NCBI GenBank assembly: GCA_046590575.1
Contig: JBKJUS010000169.1
Coordinates: forward strand, 818-64,817
DNA length: 64,000 bases
Source: Mycobacteriales bacterium
GTDB taxonomy: Bacteria; Actinomycetota; Actinomycetes; BP-191
Direction: 5' to 3'
Part shown: positions 6,515 to 38,572 of the stretch, piece by piece
Layout: every line of letters starts with the position of its first letter
How positions within the stretch are numbered: the first letter of the stretch is position 1
The notes under the pieces: generated by a model
Database searches by the model: none
What the model saw: only the letters and a program-made list of their open reading frames with translations
What the model was told of the DNA's origin: nothing
Translations under genes and position numbers: made by a program

Positions 6515-7286
6515 CCGTGCCTCTGGTCCACCTCGACGGCGTCACCCACTCGTACGCCGGTCCGCCGGTGCTGGAAGGGGTGTCGTTGCGGGTCGCGCCG
6601 GGGGAGTTCCTCGGCATCGTGGGTCCGAGCGGGTCCGGCAAGAGCACGCTGCTCCGGGTGCTCGCCGGGTCGCTGACCCCGCTCGTCGGGACAGTCACCC
6701 GCTCGGGTCCGTCCAGGATCGGCTATGTGCCCCAGGTGAGACGGTCAACTGGGACTTCCCGGTGACGGTGTCCGAGGTCGTCACGATGAGCCGTACGTCG
6801 GGCCGGTGGCTGCCCTGGTCGTCCAGGGCGGAGCAAACCGAGGTCGCGACGCTGCTCGATCGGCTCGGCCTCAGCGGACTGGGCAAGCGGCACATCCGTG
6901 AGCTCTCCGGCGGTCAGCAGCAGCGGGTGTTCATCGCCCGTGCGCTGCTGCGGCAGGCCAGCCTCCTGTTGCTCGACGAGCCGACCAGCGGCGTCGACGT
7001 ACGCACCCGCCACGACGTGCTTCACCTCCTCGACGACCTGCACGCCGGTGGGCTGGCCATCGTGCTGACGACCCACGACCTCAATGGCATTGCCGCCCAC
7101 CTGCCGCGCCTGGTGTGCCTCAACCGCGAAGTCATCGCCGACGGTGTCCCTCGCGCAGTCATCACTCCGGACGTCCTCGAGCGCACCTACGGCGCGCGCA
7201 TGGAGGTCATCGAGCACGCGGGCATGCCGGTTGTCTTCGAAGGAGGTTCGCACCACGGCGCGGACGTGGAGCGGGTGAGCAGATGA
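6511..7286 (+). pseudogene. metal ABC transporter ATP-binding protein (ZnuC/MntB-like), apparent -1 frameshift near 6736-6740
   Basis: Walker A (GPSGSGKST) is in frame 1 up to a stop at 6763-6765. The ABC signature LSGGQQQR and Walker B LLLLDEPTSGVD continue in frame 3. The junction reads ...IGYVPQV|ETVNWDF... at caggtgagacgg, so one G is missing relative to the expected gtggagacg. Confidence 0.7.
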
Positions 7287-8516: not shown

Positions 8517-9638
8517 GTGCGCGCGCGGGTGACGCGCGTCGTAGGCGCCAGCCTGGTCGCCGTGGTCACCGCCGCAACCCTCGGCAGCGCTCCGGCGGCC
8601 GCGCAGGTGGGTTCCGCCAAAATCCGCGCGGCCGAGCTGCGTCGACAGGTGGAGACCCTGCGGCGGCAGACCGGGATGGCGCTCGAGAGCTACAGCCGGG
8701 TGTACGGCGCCCTCGGCCGGGTCGTCAACGCCCGGGTGGCTGCCGAGCGCGCCGTCGAGGCTGCCCAGGCTCAGCGTGATGGCGACGCCGGCCGCGCGGA
8801 CGCCCAGCTGCGTCAGCTCTACATGCGAGGCGGCCGGCTGAGCCTCTACGCCACCCTGCTGGACTCGGTGGACCTCCACGATGCCTTCGGCCGCTACGCC
8901 AACATCACCTCGATGGTCGCCGGGGACCGCAAGGCAGCAGCGGCCGGCGACGCGACGGTCGCCCTGGCGGTCGCCGCCGAGGTCAAGCTCACCGAGCTCG
9001 CCGCCCGCGAGACGCGACTCACCCGTCAGGCGGATGAGCAGGCCGAGCGGGTGGAGGCCATCCTCGCGCAGACGCAGCAGCTCCTCGCCTCGGCCGACGC
9101 GGAGGTGCTGCGTCTCGTGGAGGAGGCGCGGCTGGCCGAGCAGGCCGCCCGCGCCCGGGCGCTTCTCGCCGCACAGCTGGCGTCGGGCGCTGCCAGCGAC
9201 TTCCCGAGCGCGGTCTTCACGCCTGTCGACGGAGCAAAGTACGCCTGCCCTGTCGGTACCGTGAACTCGTTCGTGGACACCTGGGGGGCGCCGCGGTCGG
9301 GAGGCCGTCGGCACCAGGGCACCGACGTCTTCGCGCCGATTGCCAGCGCGGCGTACGCCATGGCAGACGGGGTCATCGACCAGGTCACCAACGCCAACAT
9401 CGGCCTGGGCGGCATCACCGTCTGGCTGCGCGCGGACAACGGCGACCGGTTCTACTACGCGCACAACACGGAGAATCTGGCCGCTCTGGGTCAGCGAGTG
9501 AAAGCTGGGGACGTGATCGCGACAGTCGGCCAGTCTGGCAACGCCGCGACGACCCCACCGCACGTGCACTTCGAGGTGCACCCGGGCGGCGGGGGCGCGG
9601 TCAACCCCTACCCGTTCCTCAAGGCAGTCTGCGGCTGA
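8517..9638 (+). CDS. M23-family metallopeptidase with N-terminal signal peptide and coiled-coil
   Basis: C-terminal LytM/M23 motifs (HQGTD...HNTEN...HVHFEV). Long alanine- and glutamine-rich coiled-coil. GTG start chosen at the signal peptide. Confidence 0.7.
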   Translation: MRARVTRVVGASLVAVVTAATLGSAPAAAQVGSAKIRAAELRRQVETLRRQTGMALESYSRVYGALGRVVNARVAAERAVEAAQAQRDGDAGRADAQLRQLYMRGGRLSLYATLLDSVDLHDAFGRYANITSMVAGDRKAAAAGDATVALAVAAEVKLTELAARETRLTRQADEQAERVEAILAQTQQLLASADAEVLRLVEEARLAEQAARARALLAAQLASGAASDFPSAVFTPVDGAKYACPVGTVNSFVDTWGAPRSGGRRHQGTDVFAPIASAAYAMADGVIDQVTNANIGLGGITVWLRADNGDRFYYAHNTENLAALGQRVKAGDVIATVGQSGNAATTPPHVHFEVHPGGGGAVNPYPFLKAVCG

Positions 9639-21040: not shown

Positions 21041-21307
21041 GTCCCGGCGAACCTGGAGCAGCGGGCTCTTTCGAATCCTCGTGACCTTGTGCAACGATGA
21101 TCGCTCGATCCGAGCCTGGCCGAGGACCCAGTACTTCCTGGCGGTCGCGAAGCTGGCGCGAACCCCCTGCAGCACTTCAGGCTCTCCAGTGAGGTGCGCC
21201 CAGGTCCATGGGTCGGTCGGCCGTGCTCCGCGGGCACCTTTTGCACGTCCAGCTTCCCCGCTGCAACCCGCACTAACCCGTCAAGTCCAGCAGAACCAGG
21301 GAGAACG

Positions 21308-23566
21308 ATGGCCAAGGCCGCCAACAGCAGCGCTACCTCGTCGCCGGAGCCGTCATCCGGCGCGAGGCTGCAGAATTTCAGCCGCTCTGCCCGCGCCTAC
21401 CTGAGGGAGCGCAAGCGGCAACGGGCCATCAAGCGCCGGACGTCGAACTCCCGCCTAGCCATCTTCCTGGTGATCACACTGCTCGGTCTTTTCGCGACCG
21501 TTTTCCTCGCGCTGCGCTTCCTCGGCGCAGACGCGGACGGGCGTCAGCTCACTCTGGGTGAGGTTCGGCTGCTGGCCGATCAGGGCCGGATCGAGACCGC
21601 GACGTTGCTGGATGAGGACGACCTCTTTGTCGGCCGCTTCGTGTCGCAGGACGACGCCGACGAGCGCAACGCGCCCATTCCCGTGGCGAGCGCCTCTGCG
21701 GCCCCGGTGGCGTCGGCCACGCCGGCGCCGGCCGCGAGCGCGAAGCCGGTCGTCTCGGCGTCTCCTGCCGCCAAGCCTGCACCGTTGCCGCTGACCAACC
21801 AGGTCCCCGTCGACTCGCCGGTGCGGAACGACGCCGCTGCGGGCGACTACTACGTCAACGTCTCGGGCAGCGGCTCGCTGACCCAGGGCTTGGAGCAGGC
21901 CTTGCGCGGCAGCACCACCGAGGTGGCCGTCGACGAGCAGGGCACCAAGCAGAACGTGCGCCTGCTCACGACGTTCTTGCTGCCACTGATGATCCTCGCC
22001 AACCTTTTCGCGATGCTCTTCACCCTCGGCAAGGGTGGCAGCTCGGCAATTGGCGATGTCATCAACTTCGGCTCGATTGGCAAGGGCAAGGCCAAGAAGG
22101 GGGCGAGCTACGTCACTTTCGAGGACGTCGGTGGCGCCGACGAGGCAGTCACTGAGCTGCGTGAGGTGCGGGACTACCTCACCGATCCGGCGAAGTACGA
22201 GGCACTCGGCGCTGCTCCGCCGAAGGGCGTGCTGCTCTTCGGTCCACCCGGCACCGGCAAGACCCTGCTCGCCAAGGCGGTGGCCGGCGAGGCCGGTGTG
22301 CCGTTCTTCTCCGTCGCAGGTGCGCAGTTCGTCGAGGCCCTCGTCGGCGTCGGCGCAGCTCGGGTACGCGACCTCTTCGAGCGGGTCCACGCGGCGGCAC
22401 CGGCGATCGTCTTCATCGACGAGCTCGACGCGGCCGGGCGTAAGCGCGGCACCGGTGGTGGTGGCGGCGGCTCGGACGAGCGCGAGCAGACGCTGAACCA
22501 GCTACTGGTGGAGATGGACGGGTTCGAGGTGTCCTCGGGCATCGTGGTGATCGGCGCGACCAACCGGCCCGACATCCTCGACCCCGCGCTGATGCGCCCC
22601 GGTCGCTTCGACCGGCACATCACCATCGAGCGGCCGGAGCAGGAGGGCCGGGAGCGGATCCTGCGGATCCACGCCAAGGGCAAGCCGATCGCGCCCTCGG
22701 TGGATTTCGCCTTCCTGGCTGAGCGCACCCCGGGCTTCACTGGCGCGGACCTGGCCAACGTGGTGAATGAGGCCGCGCTGCTCGCTATCCGCCAGGGCAA
22801 GGCGCTGGTCGAGCCGGCGGAGCTCGAGGAGGCGATCCAGCGGGTGCTCACGGGGCCCAAGCGCCGCGGCCGGCTGATGAGCAGCGACGAGCGTCAGCGC
22901 GCCGCGATCCACGAGAGCGGGCATGTGGTGGTCGCTGCGGCTGCTGGGCGGGTCGCCGACGTCGAGCGCGTGTCGATCCTGAGCCGGGGGAAGCAGCTCG
23001 CCACGACGACGTTGCAGTCCGACGCCGACGTCAGCTTGCTGTCCCAGACTGCGCTGCGCGGTCAGCTGGTCACCCTCCTCGGCGGCATCGCCGCGGAAAA
23101 CCTGATCTTCGGGGAGATGTCAACCGGCGGCGAGCAGGACCTGGAGCAAGCCACCGACCTGGCCCGGGACATGGTGGCCCGCTACGGGATGAGCCCGATC
23201 CTGGGCCCCGTCCGTCTCCTCGGAAAGGCCAGTGAGGCGTTCCTCGGCAACGACATCCCGCTATCCGATGTCTCCCCGGAGACCCGGGCCACGCTGGACG
23301 CGGAGATCCGCCGGTTCATCGCCGAAGCCCAGGACGAGGCCATGGAGCTGCTGTCGCGGCACCGCGCCACCCTCGACGGCCTGGCTGCCCGACTCGAGGA
23401 GGAGGAGACCCTCGAGGGCGAAGAGCTCCAGGAGGTGCTCGCCCCGATCGAGCGGGAGATGTCCCGGGAGAAGATCAGCCCCAACGGCCGCGCCGTCCGC
23501 CGTGCGCCGGCCACCCGCCGTACGCCGGCCACCCGGCGGGCACCCGTCAAGTCTGCTCGCCGATAA
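21308..23566 (+). CDS. FtsH-family membrane AAA+ zinc metalloprotease paralog
   Basis: AGGGAG RBS. TM1, a long low-complexity periplasmic loop, then TM2. Walker A GPPGTGKT, second region of homology (SRH) and HEXXH as HESGH. M41 peptidase-like C-terminus. Confidence 0.75.
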
Positions 23567-26440: not shown

Positions 26441-29400
26441 GTGGCGAGCGAAGGCACAGGTGCCGACGCACGGCTGACCCGACTCGGCTTCACCGACCCA
26501 CGTGCCGCGCGGGCGCTGCTCGGCCCGGATGGCCTCCGCCTGTGGGGCAGCGACGGGGCGGTCGACGCCGGAGCCGCAGCGATCCTCGCCGCGCTGGCGC
26601 ACGTCGCCAACCCTGACCTCGCACTCGGCGCGCTTGGCCGGCTGGTCACGGTCGTCCCGAAGCCGGCGGTTCTGCTGGCCGCTCTGCGGTCCTCCGCCGG
26701 CCTACGTGAACGTCTGCTGGGAGTGCTCGGCACCTCGACCGTGCTCGGTGACCACCTCGTGCGGCACCCGCGGAGCTGGCCGACGCTCGCGGACAACCGC
26801 ATCGCCGCCTCACGGCCCAGCGCTCTCGGTCTGCGCGAGCAGCTGCTCGCTGCCGTCGGCGCCGACGTCACTGCTCCGCTGCCGTGGGGGAGTGGTGCGG
26901 GGAGTCGGGCGTCCGGGGCCGGCGATGACGTGCTCGACGAGCTGCGCACGGCGTACCGGTCGGCGCTGCTGCGGCTAGCGGCGCGCGATGTCGCCGGCGG
27001 CATCGCTATCGACGACGTCGCCGCCGAGCTGGCCGACCTGGCCGCCGCAACGCTGGAGGCTGCGCTCGCTGTCGCTGTGGCCGCGATCGAGCCGGACGTC
27101 GAGCCGTGCCGGATCGCCGTCATCGGCATGGGCAAATGCGGTGGGCGCGAGCTCAACTACGTCAGCGATGTGGATGTCGTCTTCGTCGCGGAGGCGCTGC
27201 CGGGCGGAGACGAGGCGCGCGCCCTGCGCACGGCTACCAGGCTGGCGGAGGGCCTGATCAAGGCATGTTCGGCGACCACTCGCGAAGGCTCCATCTGGCC
27301 GGTCGACGCCGGGCTGCGTCCCGAGGGCCGATCGGGCCCGCTGGTCCGGACCCTGGCCAGCCACGCGGCGTACTACGAGCGCTGGGCGAAGAACTGGGAG
27401 TTCCAGGCGCTGCTCAAGGCGCGTCCGGTGGCCGGCGACCTCGCCCTCGGTCAGGACTACCTCCGGGTGATCGCGCCGATGGTGTGGTCGCAGGCGCCGC
27501 GACCGGATCTGGTCGCCGACGTCCAGGCGATGAAGAAGCGGGTGGAAGGCTCGGTCGCGCCGAAGGAGTCGGGGCGCCAGCTCAAGCTCGCGCCCGGAGG
27601 TCTGCGCGACGTGGAGTTCAGCGTGCAGCTCCTCCAGCTCGTCCACGGCCGGGCCGACGAGACACTGCGCGTGCGCAGCACCCTCGAAGGGCTCGAGCGG
27701 CTGGCCAAGGGTGGCTACGTCGCGATCGAGGATGCCGAGCGGCTGGCTGACGCTTACCGATTCCTCCGCGGGGTCGAGCACCGGCTGCAGCTCCAACGCC
27801 TCCGGCGTACCCACACCCTGCCGACCGAGCCGGCGGCCTTGCGGTGGGTGGCTCGCAGCATGGGGTTCCGTGACGGGGCGCGCGGCACGGCGACGGAGGG
27901 GCTGCTTGCCGAGCGCGCCCGGCACGCGGTCGAGGTGCGGCGCCTGCACGAGAAGCTCTTCTACCGCCCCCTGCTGACCGCGGTGGCGCGGCTGCCGGCC
28001 GATGCCATCCGGTTGGCGCCCGAGGCGGCCCGCGAGCGACTGGATGCTCTTGGCTTCGCTGACTCGGCAGGTGCGCTGCGTCACCTCGAGGCGATGACCG
28101 GCGGCCTGTCCCGGAGGGCCTCGGTCCTGCGAACCATGCTGCCGGTGATGCTCCCTTGGTTCGCGGCGGCGCACGACCCGGACAGCGGGTTGCTCGCCTT
28201 CCGCACGGTCAGCGAGCAGCTAGGCAGCTCGCCGTGGTTCATCGCTCTCTTGCGGGACTCAGAAGTAGTGGCCGAGCGGCTGGCCAGTCTGCTCTCGTCC
28301 AGCAAGTTCGTGGCAGACCTGCTTGGCCGTGCCCCGGAGGCGGTAGCCATCGTCGCGCGCGACGCCGAGTTGGCACCGCGGACGGCAGCCGCACTGCACG
28401 AGGAATTCGGGTCGGTGGTGGCCCGCCACCACGACGCGGAGGCGGCCGCAGCTGCGGTGCGCGGTCTACGGCGTCACGAGCTCCTGCGAGTCGCGTGCGC
28501 TGACCTGCTGGGAATGGTCGATGTCGACGGGGTCGGTCCAGCCCTGTCCGACGTGTCGGATGCGACCCTCGCTGCGACCCTCGACGTGGCCCAGCGCCAC
28601 GTCACGGCGGTCCGCGGCGCGCCGCTCGACGTACGTCTTGTTGTTGTCGGCATGGGTCGTCTGGGCGGGCGCGAGCAAGGCTACGGCTCGGACGCAGACG
28701 TGCTCTTCGTGCATGAGCCCATGGACGGTGCCGACGAGGCAGCTGCCGCGGCCACGGCGAAGAACATCGCCGAGGAGCTGAGGCGGCTGCTCTCGGTGCC
28801 ATCCCCCGATCCACCGCTCCTCGTCGACGCGGGTCTCCGTCCGGAAGGTCGACAGGGTGCGCTCACTTTGAGCCTGTCCGGCTATGCCCGCTACTACGCA
28901 GGTCGAGCCGCCGTATGGGAGGCACAGGCGCTTCTGCGCGCTCGGGTGGTCGCCGGTGACGCCGACCTGGGTAACCGCTTTTGCGAGCTCATCGAGCCGG
29001 TGCGCTGGCCCGAGTCGTTCAGTGACGAGAGCGTGACGGAGATCCGGCGAATCAAGGCCCGAGTGGAGACCGAGCGGCTGTCGCGCGGCGTCGACCGCCA
29101 CCGTCACACGAAGCTAGGTCCCGGAGCGATCGCAGACGTGGAATGGACCGTGCAGCTGCTGCAGCTGCGCTACGCGCACTCAACGCCGACCTTGCGTACC
29201 GCTTCCACGCTCGACGCTCTGGCCGCTGCTGCTGCGGCGGGGTTGATCCCGCCGGATGACGCAGACCTGCTCTGCACGGCGTGGCAAGCGGCGACCGCGG
29301 CGCGAAACGGGCTGACGTTGGTCCGTGGCCGCGCACACGACGTGCTGCCGGATGACGCGCGCACTCTGGCCGGGGTGGCGCGGGCAGTCGGCTACCCTGC

Positions 29401-29485
29401 CGGGAGCCGAGCGGACTTCCTCGACGGCTACCGGCGCGCGACTCGGCGCGCTCGCGCAGTGGTGGAGAGGGTGTTTTACGCGTGA
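26441..29485 (+). CDS. glnE: bifunctional glutamine synthetase adenylyltransferase/adenylyl-removing enzyme
   Basis: Two nucleotidyltransferase domains with GlnE-specific motifs. 1014 aa. Confidence 0.9.
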   Translation: MASEGTGADARLTRLGFTDPRAARALLGPDGLRLWGSDGAVDAGAAAILAALAHVANPDLALGALGRLVTVVPKPAVLLAALRSSAGLRERLLGVLGTSTVLGDHLVRHPRSWPTLADNRIAASRPSALGLREQLLAAVGADVTAPLPWGSGAGSRASGAGDDVLDELRTAYRSALLRLAARDVAGGIAIDDVAAELADLAAATLEAALAVAVAAIEPDVEPCRIAVIGMGKCGGRELNYVSDVDVVFVAEALPGGDEARALRTATRLAEGLIKACSATTREGSIWPVDAGLRPEGRSGPLVRTLASHAAYYERWAKNWEFQALLKARPVAGDLALGQDYLRVIAPMVWSQAPRPDLVADVQAMKKRVEGSVAPKESGRQLKLAPGGLRDVEFSVQLLQLVHGRADETLRVRSTLEGLERLAKGGYVAIEDAERLADAYRFLRGVEHRLQLQRLRRTHTLPTEPAALRWVARSMGFRDGARGTATEGLLAERARHAVEVRRLHEKLFYRPLLTAVARLPADAIRLAPEAARERLDALGFADSAGALRHLEAMTGGLSRRASVLRTMLPVMLPWFAAAHDPDSGLLAFRTVSEQLGSSPWFIALLRDSEVVAERLASLLSSSKFVADLLGRAPEAVAIVARDAELAPRTAAALHEEFGSVVARHHDAEAAAAAVRGLRRHELLRVACADLLGMVDVDGVGPALSDVSDATLAATLDVAQRHVTAVRGAPLDVRLVVVGMGRLGGREQGYGSDADVLFVHEPMDGADEAAAAATAKNIAEELRRLLSVPSPDPPLLVDAGLRPEGRQGALTLSLSGYARYYAGRAAVWEAQALLRARVVAGDADLGNRFCELIEPVRWPESFSDESVTEIRRIKARVETERLSRGVDRHRHTKLGPGAIADVEWTVQLLQLRYAHSTPTLRTASTLDALAAAAAAGLIPPDDADLLCTAWQAATAARNGLTLVRGRAHDVLPDDARTLAGVARAVGYPAGSRADFLDGYRRATRRARAVVERVFYA

Positions 29486-31763: not shown

Positions 31764-32750
31764 TTAGATCGCGACCGGCACTCCGGCTGCGGCCGATTCG
31801 AACGCCGCGTCGAGCACGCGCGCACAAGCGAGCGACTCCTCGACCGGCAGCACCCAGCCCGCGTCACCGGCGATCACCGAGGACATCTCCTCGACCATCA
31901 GCCGGTACGGGTCGGCCGCCGGCACTGGATGGCGGGTTGTGTCGACGCCGTCGGAGACCCACAGCTCGCTGACCTGGTCGACCCACGACGTGTACGGCGC
32001 GTCGCGCAGCTCGATCTCGCCGGCGTCACCGCGCACGACGAGCCACTGCCGTCCCGGCTCATGGATGGAGACGCGCACATCCGCGTCGCCGTCGTCGAAG
32101 GTGACGATCGTCTCCATCGCGAGGTCGACGCCGGTCGGTCCGACATCCGCCTTGGCCGAGACTTCTCTCGGAGCCGCACCACCGAAGGCCCACAGGGCGG
32201 CGGAGACGGCATAGCAACCGACGTCGTACATCGCACCACCGCCGTGTCCCGGGTCGAGCCGGTAGTTCGACTCGTCGGCGATGGCGAAGGCGAAGCCGGC
32301 GCTGACATGTCGCACCCGACCAATTGCCCCGTCTGCAAGCAGGTGCTGGGCCAGCCGCACCCGCGGGTGCCACCGATACCACGAGGCTTCGACGAGCAGC
32401 CGGTCGGCGCGCGTGGCCGCGTCGCGCATCTCCTCCACTTCGCGTGCGGTGAGGCCCAGCGGCTTCTCGCAGAGCACGTGCTTGCCGGCCGCCAGCGCCG
32501 CCACGGTCCACGGCAGGTGCGCATCGTTGGCCAGAGCGATGTAGACGGCATCGACCTGGGAGTCGGCGAGAAGTGCGGCGTAGTCGCCGTACGACGTCGG
32601 CACGCCGTGCCGCGCAGCGAAGGCGGCGGCTCGCTCACTGCTGCGTGCGGCGATTGCCTGGAGGGTGCATCCCTTGGCGCCGCGAATCGCCGCGGCGATC
32701 GCGCGGTCGGCAATCCACCCTGCGCCGAGTACGCCCCAGCGCAGCGTCAT
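31764..32750 (-). CDS. Gfo/Idh/MocA family oxidoreductase
   Basis: N-terminal Rossmann GxGxxA and EKP motif (HVLCEKP). ATGA overlap with the upstream gene. Confidence 0.75.
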   Translation of the reverse strand: MTLRWGVLGAGWIADRAIAAAIRGAKGCTLQAIAARSSERAAAFAARHGVPTSYGDYAALLADSQVDAVYIALANDAHLPWTVAALAAGKHVLCEKPLGLTAREVEEMRDAATRADRLLVEASWYRWHPRVRLAQHLLADGAIGRVRHVSAGFAFAIADESNYRLDPGHGGGAMYDVGCYAVSAALWAFGGAAPREVSAKADVGPTGVDLAMETIVTFDDGDADVRVSIHEPGRQWLVVRGDAGEIELRDAPYTSWVDQVSELWVSDGVDTTRHPVPAADPYRLMVEEMSSVIAGDAGWVLPVEESLACARVLDAAFESAAAGVPVAI

Positions 32751-34417
32751 CAGGCGATCGGCTCTGTTCGGCCGCCGGCGCGCGCAGACCTGGTCGCAGC
32801 CTGCATCACCTCGATGTTTCGGCGTGAGCCCTCGGGGGTGACTGACATCGGCGCGCCGGACTGGAGGTGCTCCGCCAGCTCTCGATGGAACGGCTGCGCC
32901 GGTGGCTTGGGATACGACAGCTGCTGGACCGAGATCCCGCCGGCGCCATCTGGACGCCAGACACTGATCGTGGCGGGCGATTCTGCCGCGGCGAGACGGT
33001 CCTCGGTCAGGTTGCCGATCGCGTCACGCGCGACCACCGACTCGGTCCGCCAGTCACCGCGCACCGCCCCGTGAGTGCCGAGCGCCAACCACTTGGGCTT
33101 GAGCGCCGCGGCGATGTCGGAGTGCACGAACTCCGCCTCGACACCGTCGGCAAAGTGGATCAGCACTCGGCTGTGGTCCGCGTTGGATACGTCGTGCCAC
33201 ACACGCTTGTGGGTCGTCGCGCTGACCGACTGAACCTGCTGCGGGATCAGGTCGAGAATCCAGTCGATGTAGTGCGAGCCCCAGTCGTAGATCGCGCCAC
33301 CGGACACGGCTGCGTCGCTGTGCCAGTAGTTGCACGGGTGGCCGTAGCCACCGATGAACGTCTCGAGCGAAAAGAGGTCACCGATGTCACCCGAGCTGAC
33401 GACCTTCTTGAGGGTGAGGTAGTCGGCGTCCCACCGGCGGTTCTGGTAGACCGCCAGCGTACGGTCGGCGGCGCGCGCAGCGGCGATCATCGCGTCCGCC
33501 TCGTCGGTCGTCAGACAGAATGGCTTCTCGACAACGACGTGTTTGCCGGCCTCGAGAGCGCGCAGCGACCACTCCGCATGTGTGTTGGGCGGAGTCGAGA
33601 TGATGACCAGGCCGACCTCGTCGTCACGGAGCAGGTCTTCGCCGGTGGCGACGCCGCGAAGCTCGGGCGCGAGTGCGCGAGCGGCAGCGACGCGCTCCGG
33701 CAGGCTGTCGCAGACCGCAGCCAGTCGTAGGCCGTTCACGGCCCCGATGGCGGCGTTGTGCTCGTGCCCGATGGCGCCGTAGCCGAGGATGCCCACCCCA
33801 ACGTCCGGTCCGTCCTTTTCGCCGCTGAGCTGCCGGACGAGCCGGTGCACGATGCCGGCGTACGACGCCGCGCCAAGGCTGTCCGGCGTCGAGCCGAGCG
33901 TCAGTGCGGCGATGTTCGACGGTCCCTCGCGCAAGGCCGCGACTGGGTGGTCGACGAGGTGATGGTTGGCGGTGAGCAGCACCCGTACGTCGTCGGCAAC
34001 CTTGTCGACAAGCGGCCAGGCGTCGACTAACAGCAGGTCCCCGGACCACCGGGCGGTGAGGTCACCGGCATCCGGGCCAGGCCGCACGCGTACTTCGTGC
34101 CGGGGGAGCGCCCGTGTCGCGACCAGGCCCACGAGGTCGTGGAGTGCTGTCGCGGCGCTCGCCGCGACCAGAGTGGGTCCGGCCAGGAGAAGTGCGACTC
34201 CCCGTCCGGCAGCGGAGAGCAGCGCGTCCTCGGCGGCGTCGTCGATCGGCCGGTCGGTGAGGACGATCGCCACCGTCGCGGGCGTCGTACGCACGGCTTC
34301 GAGCCCGTCGATGACCGTGACCGAGTGACCTGCTCGGGTGAGCCACCCGGCAAGGTCGTCTGCGGCAGACCGGAGGGCGGGTGCGGCGAGGTCGAGTGCG
34401 AGATGCAGCCTGGTCAT
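32750..34417 (-). CDS. two-domain protein: N-terminal domain of unknown function (possibly ThuA/GATase1-like) fused to a Gfo/Idh/MocA oxidoreductase
   Basis: C-terminal half carries GYGAIG...EKP motifs. The N-terminal 200 aa have no confident assignment. Confidence 0.6.
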   Translation of the reverse strand: MTRLHLALDLAAPALRSAADDLAGWLTRAGHSVTVIDGLEAVRTTPATVAIVLTDRPIDDAAEDALLSAAGRGVALLLAGPTLVAASAATALHDLVGLVATRALPRHEVRVRPGPDAGDLTARWSGDLLLVDAWPLVDKVADDVRVLLTANHHLVDHPVAALREGPSNIAALTLGSTPDSLGAASYAGIVHRLVRQLSGEKDGPDVGVGILGYGAIGHEHNAAIGAVNGLRLAAVCDSLPERVAAARALAPELRGVATGEDLLRDDEVGLVIISTPPNTHAEWSLRALEAGKHVVVEKPFCLTTDEADAMIAAARAADRTLAVYQNRRWDADYLTLKKVVSSGDIGDLFSLETFIGGYGHPCNYWHSDAAVSGGAIYDWGSHYIDWILDLIPQQVQSVSATTHKRVWHDVSNADHSRVLIHFADGVEAEFVHSDIAAALKPKWLALGTHGAVRGDWRTESVVARDAIGNLTEDRLAAAESPATISVWRPDGAGGISVQQLSYPKPPAQPFHRELAEHLQSGAPMSVTPEGSRRNIEVMQAATRSARAGGRTEPIA

Positions 34418-34505
34418 GGCCACCAAGCCTACGGACCACATCCCGACGACGCACGTTGCAGGTGGGAAAATGACCCAGAAGGGCGCCGACGGGTTGCCGC
34501 CGCGC

Positions 34506-35318
34506 TCAAGCTATCGGTACGACGAGGCCGAGTTGGCGGCTCTGCGCCAGCAGCACCCCGGCGTCGTCGTAGATCTCGCAGTCCTCCTCGGCGAAGCCGT
34601 CCGCGACAGCGATCGTCCGGACGTGGCCGAGGCACCAACCTTTGTACGCCGATTGCGGCGGGGACCGAAAGTGGACGGTCAGGTCGACCGTCGGCACGGC
34701 CACCGGCACGGTGGAACGCAGGAAGAGGGTCGGGATCATCGCGTCGACGTAGAGCGCGAGAACGGCGGCGTCGACCGGCCGGCTGTCGGCCAGGCGAAGC
34801 CAACACCAGAACTCTGCCGGCGCCCCGGAGAAGAACGGCTTCGGCTCGACCGGCCGGTAGTCCAGACGCTGCGCCATCGGTGGCGCGGGAAATCCCGGCG
34901 GCGGCGACGGAGACGGCAGCGTCTCGGCAGGCGGAATGTGTGCTGCGGGACCGGCATCCTGAAATCCCTCAGCGCCCCGGCCCGCGCCGAGCGCGGCGAG
35001 GCCGTGCGCCACGAGCCGCTCGCCCTGCCGGAGCCGCACTTCGACGAAGGAAAGCGAACGTCCGGTGCGCGTGATGTCCACCTCGATCTCGGCCGGGCCT
35101 TCGGTAGCCGGTAAGAGGTAGTGCACGCTCAACGACCGAATCGGCTTGGGCTGGGCGTCATCTGCCGCGGCGACCGCCGCTTCGACGGCCCGGACGAGCA
35201 GCGCGGCGACGTAGCCGCCGTGGGGGCCGGTCAGGACGAACCAGGCCGGATCAACGTGGGCGGCGTACCGACCATCGGAGATAAAGGTCAGCGCGATTCC
35301 TTTGTCGAGCTCGCTCAT
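34506..35318 (-). CDS. acyl-CoA thioesterase II-like (double hot-dog) thioesterase family protein
   Basis: TesB-like sequence. ATGA overlap with the upstream MetE-like gene. Confidence 0.6.
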   Translation of the reverse strand: MSELDKGIALTFISDGRYAAHVDPAWFVLTGPHGGYVAALLVRAVEAAVAAADDAQPKPIRSLSVHYLLPATEGPAEIEVDITRTGRSLSFVEVRLRQGERLVAHGLAALGAGRGAEGFQDAGPAAHIPPAETLPSPSPPPGFPAPPMAQRLDYRPVEPKPFFSGAPAEFWCWLRLADSRPVDAAVLALYVDAMIPTLFLRSTVPVAVPTVDLTVHFRSPPQSAYKGWCLGHVRTIAVADGFAEEDCEIYDDAGVLLAQSRQLGLVVPIA

Positions 35319-36823
35319 CGTGATGCTTCCCTGAGTCGGTCTCGGGTGGTGGACAGGACGGCGAGGTGAGCTTCCGCCACCTCAGCGGTGACGATCGGGT
35401 TGTCGGCGAACGTGGCAAACCCGCAGTCCGGGTTGAGCAGCAGCCGTTCGGCTCCGAAGAGGTTGACCGCGTGCCGCCCCCGCGCGACGACTTCATCGAC
35501 CGGGTCGGCCATCTGCGCCTTCTGGTTGACCAGGCCCACTCCGATCCGGCGGTCGTCGGGAAGGTCGGTGAGCACTTCCATCTCGCCCGCCCGCGGCGTA
35601 CACAGCTCGAGTACGTAGGTGCCGAAATCCAGCGAGCTCAGCAGCGGGATCAGCGGCCGGTAGTCGCCCGCCAGAGCCATGGCCTCGTCCGGCGTCCAGT
35701 TGCCTCGGCATACGTGCAGGGCCAACCGGTCCGCCGGCAAGCCGGCGGTGAGCTCTTGCAGGAGACCTTGCGCAAGGTCGAGTTCGTCCCGCACGCTGCC
35801 GCGGTCGCCGAGAGCGCCGCACATGAAGGTCCGGCCGCCCTCGCCGGGTGTGCCGTAGACCACTTCGGTGAGCACCGGCTCGTCGAACTGCACCATCGCG
35901 ACGCCCTCCGCCAGCAGGTGGTGCAGCTCCTCCCGGAGCACCCGCACGATGTCGCGGGCCAGATCTGCTCGGTCGTCGTACGCCCGGTCGGAGATGCACT
36001 CCATCCACATCGTCCGGGTCAGCAGGTAGGGACCCGGCAGGCTGACTTTGATCGGCCTATTCGTCAGACGGCTCACGAACTTCGCCTCGTGCACCGCGAG
36101 GGACCGACTTCGGCCGAGTGGTCCGAACACGGCTGGGTGACGGATCTGGCCGGCCGGTACGTCGAGTGCGGCCAGCTCGGCCTCGAACTGCGCCGGGTCG
36201 TCGACGTAGGGCAACAGGTCGGTGACGGGGATCAGCTGGCAGTTCTCCAGCAAGCCGCCCACGAAACTCGCGTAGTTGTCCCGGCGCTGTTCTCCGTCGG
36301 TCACCACATCCACGCCCGCGCGCAGCTGGGCCTCGACCGACAACCGGACGGCGTCGTCGGCGCTCTCCTCGAAATCGCTCTCGCTCAGCCTGGTCTCGAG
36401 GCGCTCGTGCAGCGCTCGCAGCAGCCATCGTGGTCGCGGCCAGCTGCCGACGCCCATCACCGCCAGCGGTCCGATCGATGGCGCCGGCGCCGGCGCCGGC
36501 AGCGTGGCCGGGATGGTCGGCTTGACCACCGGCTGGGTGATCGGCGCCTGCCGCCGCGCAGCGGCGAACCCGCCCTTGCTGACCAGAAAGCTGCGTTGCG
36601 CGCCGGTCCGCCAGGTGCTGACCAGCTGGTTGCCGGTGAGCCGGCACCAGGCCGGCAGATCCTCCTCGACGGATGATTCCATCGAAAGGATCTCCAGGAG
36701 CTGACCCTGCTTCAGCGGGTCGATGTGCTTGCGGATCAGGAGCAGGAGCCCGTTACCGCAGTCGAGCTCGCCGCCGTCGAAGCTGACGTCAGGCTCGTGC
36801 GGATGCGCCCTGGGACGGCTCAC
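35315..36823 (-). CDS. fusion protein: N-terminal TusA-like domain plus cobalamin-independent methionine synthase (MetE C-terminal, Meth_synt_2) fold domain
   Basis: Residues about 8-75 align with TusA (LDCGNG...DLPAWCRLTGNQLV). The remainder is a Meth_synt_2-like domain that retains the zinc-ligand motifs HVCRGN (HxC) and NPDCGF (DCG). GTG start lies 15 nt after the DsrE stop. Confidence 0.65.
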   Translation of the reverse strand: MSRPRAHPHEPDVSFDGGELDCGNGLLLLIRKHIDPLKQGQLLEILSMESSVEEDLPAWCRLTGNQLVSTWRTGAQRSFLVSKGGFAAARRQAPITQPVVKPTIPATLPAPAPAPSIGPLAVMGVGSWPRPRWLLRALHERLETRLSESDFEESADDAVRLSVEAQLRAGVDVVTDGEQRRDNYASFVGGLLENCQLIPVTDLLPYVDDPAQFEAELAALDVPAGQIRHPAVFGPLGRSRSLAVHEAKFVSRLTNRPIKVSLPGPYLLTRTMWMECISDRAYDDRADLARDIVRVLREELHHLLAEGVAMVQFDEPVLTEVVYGTPGEGGRTFMCGALGDRGSVRDELDLAQGLLQELTAGLPADRLALHVCRGNWTPDEAMALAGDYRPLIPLLSSLDFGTYVLELCTPRAGEMEVLTDLPDDRRIGVGLVNQKAQMADPVDEVVARGRHAVNLFGAERLLLNPDCGFATFADNPIVTAEVAEAHLAVLSTTRDRLREASR

Positions 36824-36837
36824 CGGCGTACGCCGAC

Positions 36838-37176
36838 CTAGTAGGTGACGCAGGGTGCGCCGCTGGCGAGGAACTCCACCAGCTTCGCCCCGCCGACAAT
36901 CGTCGCGCCCTTGATCAGCGCGTTCTCGTCGAGACCGCGCTTCTTGAAGCAGGGGGAGCACACCCAGATGGTCCCGCCGGCCTCGACGAAGTTGGCCATC
37001 AGGTCCTTGAGCGGGGAGAAGCCGTCCTCGTGGATGTCGTCGGCGTAGCCCTCGACGGCTAGCTGCACACCATCGGTGGAGAGGAAGACGAGGGTCTCCT
37101 GATCAGACCCGGCAGCGGCATTCGCCACCACAAAACCCACCGTGACCCGGTCGGGGTCGTTCTTGGCGTTGGTCAT
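36838..37176 (-). CDS. DsrE/DsrF-like family protein
   Basis: 113-aa YchN/DsrE-fold signature (...AGGTIWVCSPCFKKRGL...LVEF). RBS-like GGAAAG. Confidence 0.65.
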   Translation of the reverse strand: MTNAKNDPDRVTVGFVVANAAAGSDQETLVFLSTDGVQLAVEGYADDIHEDGFSPLKDLMANFVEAGGTIWVCSPCFKKRGLDENALIKGATIVGGAKLVEFLASGAPCVTY

Positions 37177-37202
37177 CGACACACAGAACTTTCCAGCCAC
37201 TG

Positions 37203-37445
37203 CTACTCCTTGAGTCGTCGTTGGATGAGGTAGACGGGATGGTCGGCGGCCACCAAGGTGTGGCCCGTCATGCGGCACCATGACGGAATGTCGGCCGGAG
37301 CGCCCGGATCGTGCGCCACGAGCTCGAACATCGCACCCGGCATGAGTGGAGCCAGGCGACGGCGGAGCTCCATGACGAGCTCTCCACAGCCGGTTTGGCC
37401 CGCGTCCCAGCGCTGCACCGCGCTGTCGTCGCTGTCCGCGGGCAC
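37203..37445 (-). CDS. TusA-family sulfur-carrier-like protein (CPxP replaced by CGEL)
   Basis: Aligns along its whole length with E. coli TusA (DAGQTGCGELVMELRRRLAPLMPGAMFELVAHDPGAPADIPSWCRMTGHTLV versus [52 protein letters not shown]). Confidence 0.65.
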   Translation of the reverse strand: MPADSDDSAVQRWDAGQTGCGELVMELRRRLAPLMPGAMFELVAHDPGAPADIPSWCRMTGHTLVAADHPVYLIQRRLKE

Positions 37446-37632
37446 GCGGCTCCTCTCAGCGAACTCGGCGGCGCGCTAGGAGGGGGCGTGGCGCGGACCG
37501 AGGGGTGGACGCTCGCCCGACCGGACGAGAGGCGGGTGGACTCAGCGGTGTGTCATGGCGCGGCCCTCCTCCCGGTCGGTGCTCCAGCAGCGGCAGCCAG
37601 ACTAGCCGGATCCGTATGGCGCCCCCGAACGC

Positions 37633-37669
37633 GAGGGATCCCCGCCGCGAGCCGCGGCGGGGATCCCTC
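37633..37669. terminator. perfect 17-bp stem / 3-nt loop palindrome (GAGGGATCCCCGCCGCG-AGC-CGCGGCGGGGATCCCTC)
   Basis: Found directly in the sequence between the protease gene stop (37693) and the TusA operon. GC-rich hairpin without a U-tract, as is common for actinobacterial intrinsic terminators. Confidence 0.5.
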
Positions 37670-37692: not shown

Positions 37693-38472
37693 TTAGACGC
37701 CTGTGTTGGACGAGATGAAGGAGCGGATAGCTGGGTTGTTGATCTCGCTGTACACGCCCGGGAACTTCGGCAGGGCGCAGCTCTGGCCGTAGCTGACGAC
37801 GCCGATCTGAACCGGGCCCGCAGGTGTCGGCGCAAAGAGCGGCCCCCCCGAGTCACCCTGGCAGGAGTCCTTGAGCAGCGCCGCTGCGCAGACGCCGGTT
37901 GCGTCGTCGAAGCCGAAGTTGGTCTGTCCGCATTCGGCGTCGGAGACGACGTTCAGGTCGACCTGTCGCAGCCTGCTCGTCGAGTTGAGGCCGAGCGTGG
38001 GGGTCTGGTCGCCCCAACCTGTCACCGTGACCCGGGTGCCGGCGGTCTCCAGCGCCTCGTTCGCCGCGGTGGCCAACGTGATCGCCGGCGAGGTTGTCAC
38101 GGACGTCAGCTTCAGCAGCGCGACGTCGTGGGTGGAGTTCTCGTACGCCGGGTGCACGATCACCTGAGAGACCTTGATCCGCTGACCCTTGCTCGCGTCG
38201 GCGAGATTGGTGCGACCCGTCACGACGAACAGGTCGTTGGCGCTGCCGTCGGCGACGCAGTGTGCTGCGGTCAGCACCCAGCTGGCGCTGATCACGCTGC
38301 CGCCGCAGAAGGCGAATCCAGAGCCGTCCTGAATAGAGGCCATGAACGGAAAGGCGCCTTCAGTGGCCGCCGAGCCGCCGACGACCGCCTGACTCGGCGC
38401 CGCGGCGATCAGGGTGCCGCCACACGCCAGGCTGGCAGCGGCGAGGGTTCGTACGAGGAAGCCGAGACGCAT
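37693..38472 (-). CDS. secreted trypsin-like (S1 family) serine protease
   Basis: Signal peptide. Catalytic triad motifs TAAHC, D and GDSGGP. Confidence 0.75.
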   Translation of the reverse strand: MRLGFLVRTLAAASLACGGTLIAAAPSQAVVGGSAATEGAFPFMASIQDGSGFAFCGGSVISASWVLTAAHCVADGSANDLFVVTGRTNLADASKGQRIKVSQVIVHPAYENSTHDVALLKLTSVTTSPAITLATAANEALETAGTRVTVTGWGDQTPTLGLNSTSRLRQVDLNVVSDAECGQTNFGFDDATGVCAAALLKDSCQGDSGGPLFAPTPAGPVQIGVVSYGQSCALPKFPGVYSEINNPAIRSFISSNTGV

Positions 38473-38572
38473 GCGGATGTCCGATCGGTCGGGGAAAGGT
38501 GTCATATGTCCTAACGCCGGACCGACCGGATCCATTCGCGTGTATCTCTCACTTCTCGGTGAGATCGTGGTG

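Follow-up and report, generated by a model that had tools for sequence, protein, structure and literature searches.

Relays of TusA and DsrE proteins have known outlets in tRNA thiolation, in the synthesis of the molybdenum cofactor and in dissimilatory sulfur oxidation. Carrier-bound sulfur also enters amino acid synthesis, as in CysO-CysM of Mycobacterium tuberculosis and HcyS-MetY of Wolinella, where ubiquitin-like thiocarboxylates supply the sulfur of cysteine and homocysteine to pyridoxal phosphate (PLP) enzymes. The fold of the cobalamin-independent methionine synthase MetE is likewise not tied to methyl carriers, since its homologue epoxyalkane:coenzyme M transferase pairs a zinc thiolate with another kind of alkyl donor. 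The structure 3RPD is that of MesD, a folate-independent methionine synthase which needs MesX (DUF1852) and oxygen and whose methyl donor is unsolved (Price et al., PMC7857596). In this paper, we report the analysis of a 64,000-nucleotide stretch of contig JBKJUS010000169.1 of a Mycobacteriales bacterium (here, the window), in which a minus-strand operon encodes a free-standing TusA-like carrier, a DsrE-fold protein and a TusA domain fused to a core-MetE barrel. The sequences lead us to propose, tentatively and at rather less than even confidence, that this triad is a cysteine-based relay in which the fusion is the last enzyme and acts on the sulfur of a substrate of the homocysteine type.

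A preliminary description, made from the letters of the sequence alone, had named four closely packed minus-strand open reading frames (ORFs), and all four were recovered. The free-standing TusA gene (37203-37445; 80 aa; Pfam TusA) is followed by the DsrE-fold gene (36838-37200; Pfam DsrE; 120 aa from GTG 37200 or 112 aa from ATG 37176), the fusion gene (35315-36823) and a gene for a TesB-like double-hotdog acyl-CoA thioesterase (34506-35318; Pfam 4HBT_3 and 4HBT_3C). The 14-nt gap between DsrE and fusion and the 4-nt ATGA overlap between fusion and thioesterase were verified in the sequence. The reported 26-nt gap between TusA and DsrE holds only if the latter starts at ATG 37176. GTG 37200, which sits five bases past AAGGAG and yields the 120-aa length called in homologues, is most likely the start, in which case the gap is 2 nt.

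The third gene had been read as a TusA-MetE fusion of 503 aa; the fusion stands, and the length is corrected to 502 aa plus the stop codon, counted from a GTG start. It comprises an N-terminal TusA domain (36572-36823; residues 1-84), a Pro-rich linker (36464-36571; residues 85-120) and the core-MetE, or Meth_synt_2, barrel (35315-36463; residues 121-502), and the same three parts are seen in its AlphaFold2 model (predicted local distance difference test, pLDDT, 82; predicted template modelling score 0.77). Linker residues 101-120 are modelled with a pLDDT of 94-97, which suggests that the second half of the linker packs on the barrel.

The Meth_synt_2 assignment was borne out by Pfam PF01717 at 93.4 bits against a cut-off of 21. 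The zinc-ligand motifs HxC (here HVC) and DCG proposed for the barrel are present, and the ligands H370, C372, E406 and C467 align with E. coli H641, C643, E665 and C726. The homocysteine contacts S127, E178 and D314 match E. coli S433, E484 and D599. All seven residues are invariant among 38 homologous sequences, as are three further cysteines (C195, C276 and C335), and the combined SEDHCEC signature occurs in 38 of 45 wider-clade ORFs, most of the others being truncated. The roles of the zinc and homocysteine residues were assigned from PMC7857596. The zinc site thus most likely binds an amino acid of the homocysteine type.

MesD (ACIAD3523 of Acinetobacter; 3RPD of Shewanella) is the best match to the fusion both by sequence (3RPD: phmmer 8e-23, 84 bits) and by fold (3RPD: Foldseek target template modelling score 0.81, ahead of the C-terminal halves of MetE). 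The two have in common a single (beta-alpha)8 Meth_synt_2 barrel without a folate-binding domain, the HxC...E...C zinc site and the Ser/Glu/Asp homocysteine contacts. However, identity in the structure alignment is about 23%, the MesD model PRK09121 scores the fusion at 104.7 bits against a cut-off of 392, the 84 bits to 3RPD compare with the at least 390 bits to ACIAD3523/3RPD by which Price et al. define MesD similarity, and no MesX (DUF1852) gene occurs among the annotated neighbours of the fusion; on these grounds the fusion is not MesD. MesD in turn is without the TusA domain, the Pro-rich linker and the cysteine or selenocysteine (Sec) of the FMC(G/A) loop described below. With the C-terminal domain of MetE, the fusion shares the fold, zinc ligands and substrate contacts, whereas the MetE model TIGR01371 gives it 56 bits against a cut-off of 930. 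The only trace of the folate-binding Meth_synt_1 domain in the fusion was a sub-threshold overlap of 16.5 bits; lacking this N-terminal domain of MetE, the fusion has no folate triglutamate site. None of the NCBIfam equivalogs accepts the TusA, DsrE or fusion protein of the window.

The two free-standing carrier proteins were likewise confirmed. Free TusA scores 37.3 bits with Pfam PF01206 (cut-off 28.6) and, as had been claimed, aligns residue for residue with E. coli TusA (PDB 3LVJ/1DCJ), residues 13-68 falling ungapped onto 13-68. Cys20 of its GCGEL motif (codon 37386-37388) lies on the active Cys19 of RCPEP, so that CPxP is indeed replaced by CGEL; this candidate active cysteine is conserved in an alignment of 36 sequences, and a second conserved one, Cys57, stands within PSWC. 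The DsrE-fold assignment of the second protein is supported by 58 bits with PF02635 (cut-off 22.7). Its CxxC motif, Cys81-Ser-Pro-Cys84 (VCSPC; codons 36958-36960 and 36949-36951), is conserved across 80 sequences, and in the closest solved structure, the Sulfolobus DsrE/DsrF-like protein 3MC3, the first of these cysteines is aligned. The TusA domain of the fusion (residues 27-81) falls just under the Pfam cut-off of 28.6 (26.6 bits, E = 5.5e-6); homologues of the fusion carry a precomputed PF01206 match, and the AlphaFold2 model has a beta-alpha-beta-alpha-beta-beta pattern over residues 13-82 that fits TusA. The N-terminus described as TusA-like does carry the DCGNG motif: Cys22 of LDCGNG (codon 36758-36760) and Cys60 of PAWC are invariant in the 38 homologues. 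In both the free protein and the fused domain the cysteine of CPxP is kept and both prolines are lost.

As in the TusA-TusBCD relay of E. coli 2-thiouridine synthesis and the DsrEFH system of Allochromatium sulfur oxidation, a TusA cysteine equivalent to E. coli Cys19 is accompanied by a DsrE-fold partner with conserved cysteines, and in Paracoccus a desulfurase adjoins. The differences are that the CPxP of those carriers is replaced here by the CG motifs GCGEL and DCGNG, that the window holds a single DsrE gene with a CxxC motif in place of the three paralogues of DsrEFH/TusBCD, with no DsrF/DsrH or TusB/TusC, and that a MetE-fold enzyme stands where TusE, DsrC or MnmA would be the acceptor. 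Sulfur would come from a carrier protein instead of free sulfide, as in CysO-CysM and HcyS-MetY, whereas the components are cysteine persulfide proteins and a zinc barrel and not thiocarboxylates and PLP enzymes. Epoxyalkane:coenzyme M transferase, compared by description only, differs in its thiol (coenzyme M), in having no relay and in having no loop cysteine.

Two variations on the carriers were noted in related loci. In some Burkholderiales the fusion has at its flank a second DsrE-like gene, a divergent one (PF02635, 31.8 bits; L063:9515-9853; likewise L046, L049, L062, L069, L075 and L026). In Planctomycetota and some loci of the sister clade, the free TusA is extended at its N-terminus by about 120 aa that show a CxxC...CxxC pattern and may form a metal-binding domain (L053:7587-8216; L104:6266-6847; L031, L079, L085).

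One of the invariant cysteines, C335, which the preliminary description had overlooked, sets the barrel apart. It lies within R-T-F-M-C-G-A-L in an insertion after the DEP strand, the clade-specific active-site loop GGRTFMCGALGDR (35801-35839, minus strand; residues 329-341; C335 codon 35819-35821). Nothing in 3RPD aligns with residues 319-354, MetE alignments cover the stretch poorly, and neither MetE nor MesD has a cysteine at this position. AlphaFold2 confidence is low over residues 321-340, and the loop is therefore probably mobile. The cysteine was found in 43 of 45 MetE-like ORFs from three related clades, along with the full zinc and homocysteine signature, and is missing from more distant MetE-like paralogues.

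Two metagenomic relatives have an in-frame TGA at this very position (SRTFMUGSL): L139 (1-850, TGA at 157-159) and L121 (8013-9161, TGA at 8667-8669). In both, conserved sequence runs on past the TGA through HICRGNW to PDCGF, and an identical hairpin, AACCCGC-CGUGAU-GCGGGUU, follows 14 nt after it although the surrounding DNA is 64% identical. The selenocysteine genes selA and selB directly follow the gene in L139 and were also found in L122 and L144. No TGA was found at the other conserved cysteines (the TusA Cys, DsrE CxxC, PAWC, HxC and DCG); six apparent U matches to the DsrE pattern lay on the opposite strand and were discarded as junk. In the window, codon 335 is TGC, and the in-frame UGA that would mark a selenoprotein gene is absent there. 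Selenocysteine marks catalytic, redox-active or nucleophilic positions, and C335 is thus a candidate catalytic nucleophile or redox centre, and a candidate last station of the relay. The L139 and L121 forms appear to represent an unlisted selenoprotein family, as the selenoproteome reviews consulted list no MetE-like family, and Sec variants of a MetE-like enzyme appear undescribed in the literature searched.

Conservation of the unit was assessed with large-scale searches. Among the matches of a search against 5.8 billion proteins were more than 100 full-length relatives of the fusion (498-575 aa, 97-100% coverage, 63-82% identity), labelled just 'MetE' or 'TusA family', so that the fusion is genuine and no product of a frameshift. 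Scanning a single genome per species gave 343 confirmed encoding stretches, and counts out of 80 refer to the best 80 of these, which belong to Actinomycetota, Acidimicrobiia, Propionibacteriales, Micrococcaceae, Planctomycetota, Binatia, Burkholderiales, Obscuribacterales and Acidobacteriaceae. Related loci span at least five phyla, and the triad is conserved in Actinomycetota, Planctomycetota, Binatia, Burkholderiales, Alphaproteobacteria (Paracoccus), Obscuribacterales and Acidobacteriaceae. Of the 80 loci, 75 have DsrE, with 67 placing it no more than 400 nt ahead of the fusion, and 53 have a free-standing TusA. The thioesterase, which had been counted as part of the system, was found in none of the 80 (tblastn, 1e-4), including loci 79-82% identical, and the flanks of the closest actinobacterial relatives vary from locus to locus. 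The conserved unit is therefore the triad of TusA, DsrE and fusion; the thioesterase is a local passenger, translationally coupled through ATGA in this genome only, and its exact sequence has no database record.

Unfused relatives of about 390 aa (33-46% identity) were recovered by a profile-free search of 1.84 billion representatives, and a metagenome scan added 80 loci. The operon of this sister clade consists of TusA, DsrE, a TusA::OsmC fusion and an unfused MetE-like gene. In 14 loci (L099, L100, L104, L105, L107, L110-L114, L116, L137, L140 and L144) a TusA domain of the DCG[NS]G type, orthologous to that of the window, continues in frame into an OsmC-like domain; the product, of about 220 aa with one cysteine in its OsmC part, is encoded between DsrE and the MetE-like gene (e.g. 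L104:7288-7960). OsmC occurs in 38 of 57 loci. Another order in the sister clade is MetE-like, OsmC and rhodanese, with a rhodanese gene adjoining in L088, L091, L094, L097 and L124. In Paracoccus the order is a divergent SufS-family desulfurase gene, TusA, DsrE, two genes of unknown function, the fusion, selA and trxB. These arrangements lend much more weight to the suggestion of a functional link between a cysteine or persulfide relay and the MetE-fold enzyme: DsrE stands directly upstream in most loci, OsmC carries the same TusA domain in the sister clade, rhodanese, SufS-type desulfurase and TrxB recur as neighbours, and the loop cysteine is replaced by Sec in two relatives. In three clades the enzyme is linked to cysteine-carrier proteins, either covalently or through its operon; of the recurring partners, rhodanese and SufS generate persulfides, and TrxB, the OsmC-like protein and the CxxC DsrE are sources of reducing power.

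How such a relay might work can be outlined from these parts. The barrel keeps a full zinc site and a full amino acid pocket of the homocysteine/methionine type, and the simplest role for a Sec-replaceable cysteine next to zinc-bound sulfur lies in chemistry on this sulfur, be it installing or unloading. Sulfane sulfur, made elsewhere by a desulfurase or rhodanese, would pass from free TusA to DsrE, then to C22 of the fused TusA domain and on to C335 of the loop, which would hand it to the zinc site holding a four-carbon amino acid. The homocysteine thiol would then be formed on the enzyme in one of two ways. In the first, a zinc-activated C335 persulfide would be alkylated by O-acetyl-, O-succinyl- or O-phospho-homoserine to give enzyme-S-S-homocysteine, which relay thiols such as the DsrE CxxC would release reductively. 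In the second, the loop cysteine would reductively unload S-thiolated or S-sulfonated homocysteine. The homocysteine would go on to methionine synthesis, possibly at the same zinc site. Synthesis of homocysteine or methionine from protein-bound sulfur, one of the outcomes offered in the preliminary description, is thus our preferred reading.

Several points weigh against the preferred reading. To our knowledge, the characterised enzymes with this pocket (MetE, MesA-D) all methylate homocysteine and none makes it, and we know of no precedent on this fold for PLP-free C-S bond formation from activated homoserine. Binatia loci possess MetY for that step, and a methionine synthase would be the simpler completion of their pathway. 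What the relay proteins carry could be reducing equivalents instead of sulfur. An importer with an HtxB-like binding protein, embedded in 10 loci of two lineages, is also not accounted for.

The main rival, which precedent and the Binatia gene order favour and which we hold to be somewhat less likely, is that the fusion belongs to a fifth family of folate-independent core methionine synthases, methylating zinc-bound homocysteine as MesD does, with TusA, DsrE and the loop cysteine replacing MesX in the delivery or activation of the methyl group or keeping the zinc and loop cysteines reduced in aerobes. MesD is the closest solved relative, all zinc and homocysteine residues are invariant, and identities of 61-82% across phyla fit a central enzyme. 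The unit is divergent in 23 Binatia loci from metY (649.8 bits), metX (529.8 bits) and metW (219.8 bits), the branch from homoserine to homocysteine, and these genes with the DsrE-fusion pair would make up a complete set from homoserine to methionine. The donor of MesD is likewise unsolved, and a partner protein and O2 are needed there too (PMC7857596). On the other hand, no methyl carrier of any kind was seen in the neighbourhoods, corrinoid protein, MetF and DUF1852/MesX being absent from every annotated locus; TusA, DsrE, rhodanese and SufS traffic sulfane sulfur and have no known methyl-carrying role; and a thioether on cysteine would be a poor methyl donor. Rfam gave no family at gathering score in the window, nor at a lenient threshold in the leader of about 190 nt ahead of the free TusA gene (37446-37632), and none reached threshold in 22 related loci, so that these 23 sources hold no clue of an S-adenosylmethionine, B12 or T-box leader. 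The fusions of Paracoccus versutus and P. ferrooxidans are on replicons of 1.5-2.2 Mb recorded as plasmids in PLSDB, and the unit on the 1.5-Mb replicon, among selenium and redox genes, looks accessory.

It is improbable that the unit acts on reduced phosphorus or selenium with no C-S chemistry, whether by oxidising imported phosphite with a disulfide or persulfide or by handling selenide, selenohomocysteine or selenomethionine. What brings phosphorus into consideration is an ATP-binding cassette (ABC) importer of the PhnC/PhnE type, which lies between DsrE and fusion in eight Burkholderiales loci (L072, L063, L066, L067, L069, L070, L077 and L046) and after the fusion in L006 and L081 (L072:5375-7983; L081:11652-14206; L006:3230-5100). 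Its permease scores above the PhnE cut-off and its ATPase above that of PhnC, and its binding protein matches HtxB at 259-263 bits and about 50% identity, keeping W52 (the P-H...pi Trp), Y97, T129, S130, R178 and D206 and carrying N128S, F158H and M176F, the substitutions of an 'HtxB-like' subgroup of predicted phosphite binders (PMC6629693). Genes for PhoD and a PiT-family transporter are near some loci. For selenium, selA, selB, a UGSC selenoprotein gene and TrxB adjoin in some loci. However, the importer is confined to 10 of 84 fused-clade loci in two lineages and is absent from the window, and unlike the HtxBCDE/PtxABC systems of P. stutzeri, it stands in a TusA/DsrE/MetE-like operon with no ptxD or htxA seen nearby. 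The sel genes are explained where the enzyme itself is a selenoprotein, and an acidic amino acid pocket is ill-suited to a phosphorus oxyanion. Methylphosphonate as methyl donor, prompted by the HtxB-like importer, was also considered and rejected, since the importer occurs in two lineages only, it is implausible as chemistry that phosphite would be displaced from a methyl carbon, and the binding pocket suits a P-H or isosteric ligand. A CysB-family regulator is found near one importer locus and a generic LysR regulator near another.

The preliminary description had further offered methylation of the carrier persulfide, in which a persulfide on the TusA domain or on C335 would itself be activated by zinc and methylated to methyl persulfide or methanethiol, for instance to feed MetY. 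The relay is covalently joined to an alkyl-transfer fold, MetY can use methanethiol, and its gene adjoins in Binatia. We nonetheless regard this outcome as quite improbable and unsupported, as it conflicts with the conserved alpha-amino-acid pocket by leaving the invariant S127, E178 and D314 without a role, the annotated loci offer no methyl-donor partner, and the product would be toxic and volatile. Least credible is a single four-gene pathway on an acyl-CoA or thioester intermediate, for although the ATGA overlap shows co-translation in this genome and a third MetE-like clade adjoins an Rv1679-like acyl-CoA dehydrogenase, the absence of the thioesterase from all 80 related loci contradicts it as a general statement.

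The families from which this unit is built are all known; what appears undescribed in the literature searched is a MesD-like barrel combined with a fused TusA domain, a Cys/Sec loop and obligatory DsrE and TusA or OsmC partners. Searches on TusA with cobalamin-independent methionine synthase, DUF1852 and TusA/DsrE found no account of it, in keeping with the earlier view that no characterised system has this architecture. The fusion family can be viewed as a sister to MesD in which cysteine-relay proteins replace MesX and a further Cys or Sec is added, and it offers a second, genetically compact system in which to pursue the methyl source of folate- and B12-independent core synthases. If the enzyme installs sulfur, aerobic bacteria of soil and water would have a new way to homocysteine that needs no sulfide, and TusA/DsrE relays would gain a new end point. 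A broader and more doubtful generalisation is that the FMC-loop MetE-like enzymes form a new class that makes C-S bonds or unloads sulfur (from activated homoserine and a zinc-activated Cys or Sec persulfide that the TusA/DsrE relay supplies, with no PLP and no free sulfide) or, should they methylate, that the relay is the kind of partner long sought to provide or activate the one-carbon unit for MesD-type synthases. As the enzyme has no folate-binding domain, thousands of database entries under the names '5-methyltetrahydropteroyltriglutamate--homocysteine methyltransferase' or 'TusA family protein' carry the wrong label.

Further genes recur around related units. In the third clade (L127-L136) an FMC-loop MetE-like gene is accompanied by a weak OsmC-like gene and by genes for the Rv1679-like acyl-CoA dehydrogenase and a cytoplasmic Rv1680-like protein of the PhnD fold; L130:5970-9660 is an example of this four-gene set, and MsrAB adjoins in one locus. 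The corresponding M. tuberculosis cluster Rv1679-Rv1681, in which Rv1681 has a TusA-like N-terminus, is given no function in the papers found on Rv1680/Rv1681. Near the Paracoccus unit is a UGSC selenoprotein gene that is split in the annotation: in P. ferrooxidans (CP038202.1; L170:2496-3065) adjacent ORFs annotated as hypothetical proteins (80 and 95 aa) each correspond to one half of Pfam UGSC and are probably one selenoprotein gene divided at its UGA, 8 kb from the selA and trxB that adjoin the fusion. A protein of about 160 aa, which corresponds to the molybdopterin-binding part only of sulfite oxidase/SoxC/MsrP, has its gene immediately after the fusion in Binatia (L082:11708-12187 and ten further loci), and a longer relative lies near the unit in L081 (5109-6266). 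Distant lineages share a gene for a transglutaminase-core protein close upstream of the TusA/DsrE unit (L170:3469-4575; L104:4798-6249; L113:5118-6248; weaker in L053, L041 and L068); in Paracoccus this protein has a twin-arginine translocation signal.

The window itself was searched for an HtxB-like importer, MetX, MetY, MetW, the molybdoenzyme and a second DsrE; none was found, and the search for recurrent neighbours returned just an unrelated ABC ATPase (6526-7172). A consensus promoter and terminator scan of the window likewise found nothing, as is expected at 68-70% G+C. G+C content is even (0.66-0.74), and glnE (26441-29485) and an FtsH-family gene (21194-23566) lie nearby; the window is ordinary chromosomal DNA of a high-G+C actinomycete. 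Upstream of the operon is a gene for a secreted trypsin-family protease (37693-38535, minus strand; Pfam Trypsin, 180 bits). Just past its stop (37693), a perfect 16-bp G+C-rich hairpin read from the sequence (37633-37669, minus strand) probably terminates the protease transcript, which would make the TusA operon its own transcription unit; the leader mentioned above lies between this hairpin and the TusA gene. Downstream, 64 nt beyond the thioesterase gene, are two minus-strand genes for GFO/IDH/MocA oxidoreductases (32750-34441 and 31764-32750), the first with an extra N-terminal stretch of about 210 aa that has no Pfam match. The two overlap by one base (32750), and the thioesterase transcript may include both.

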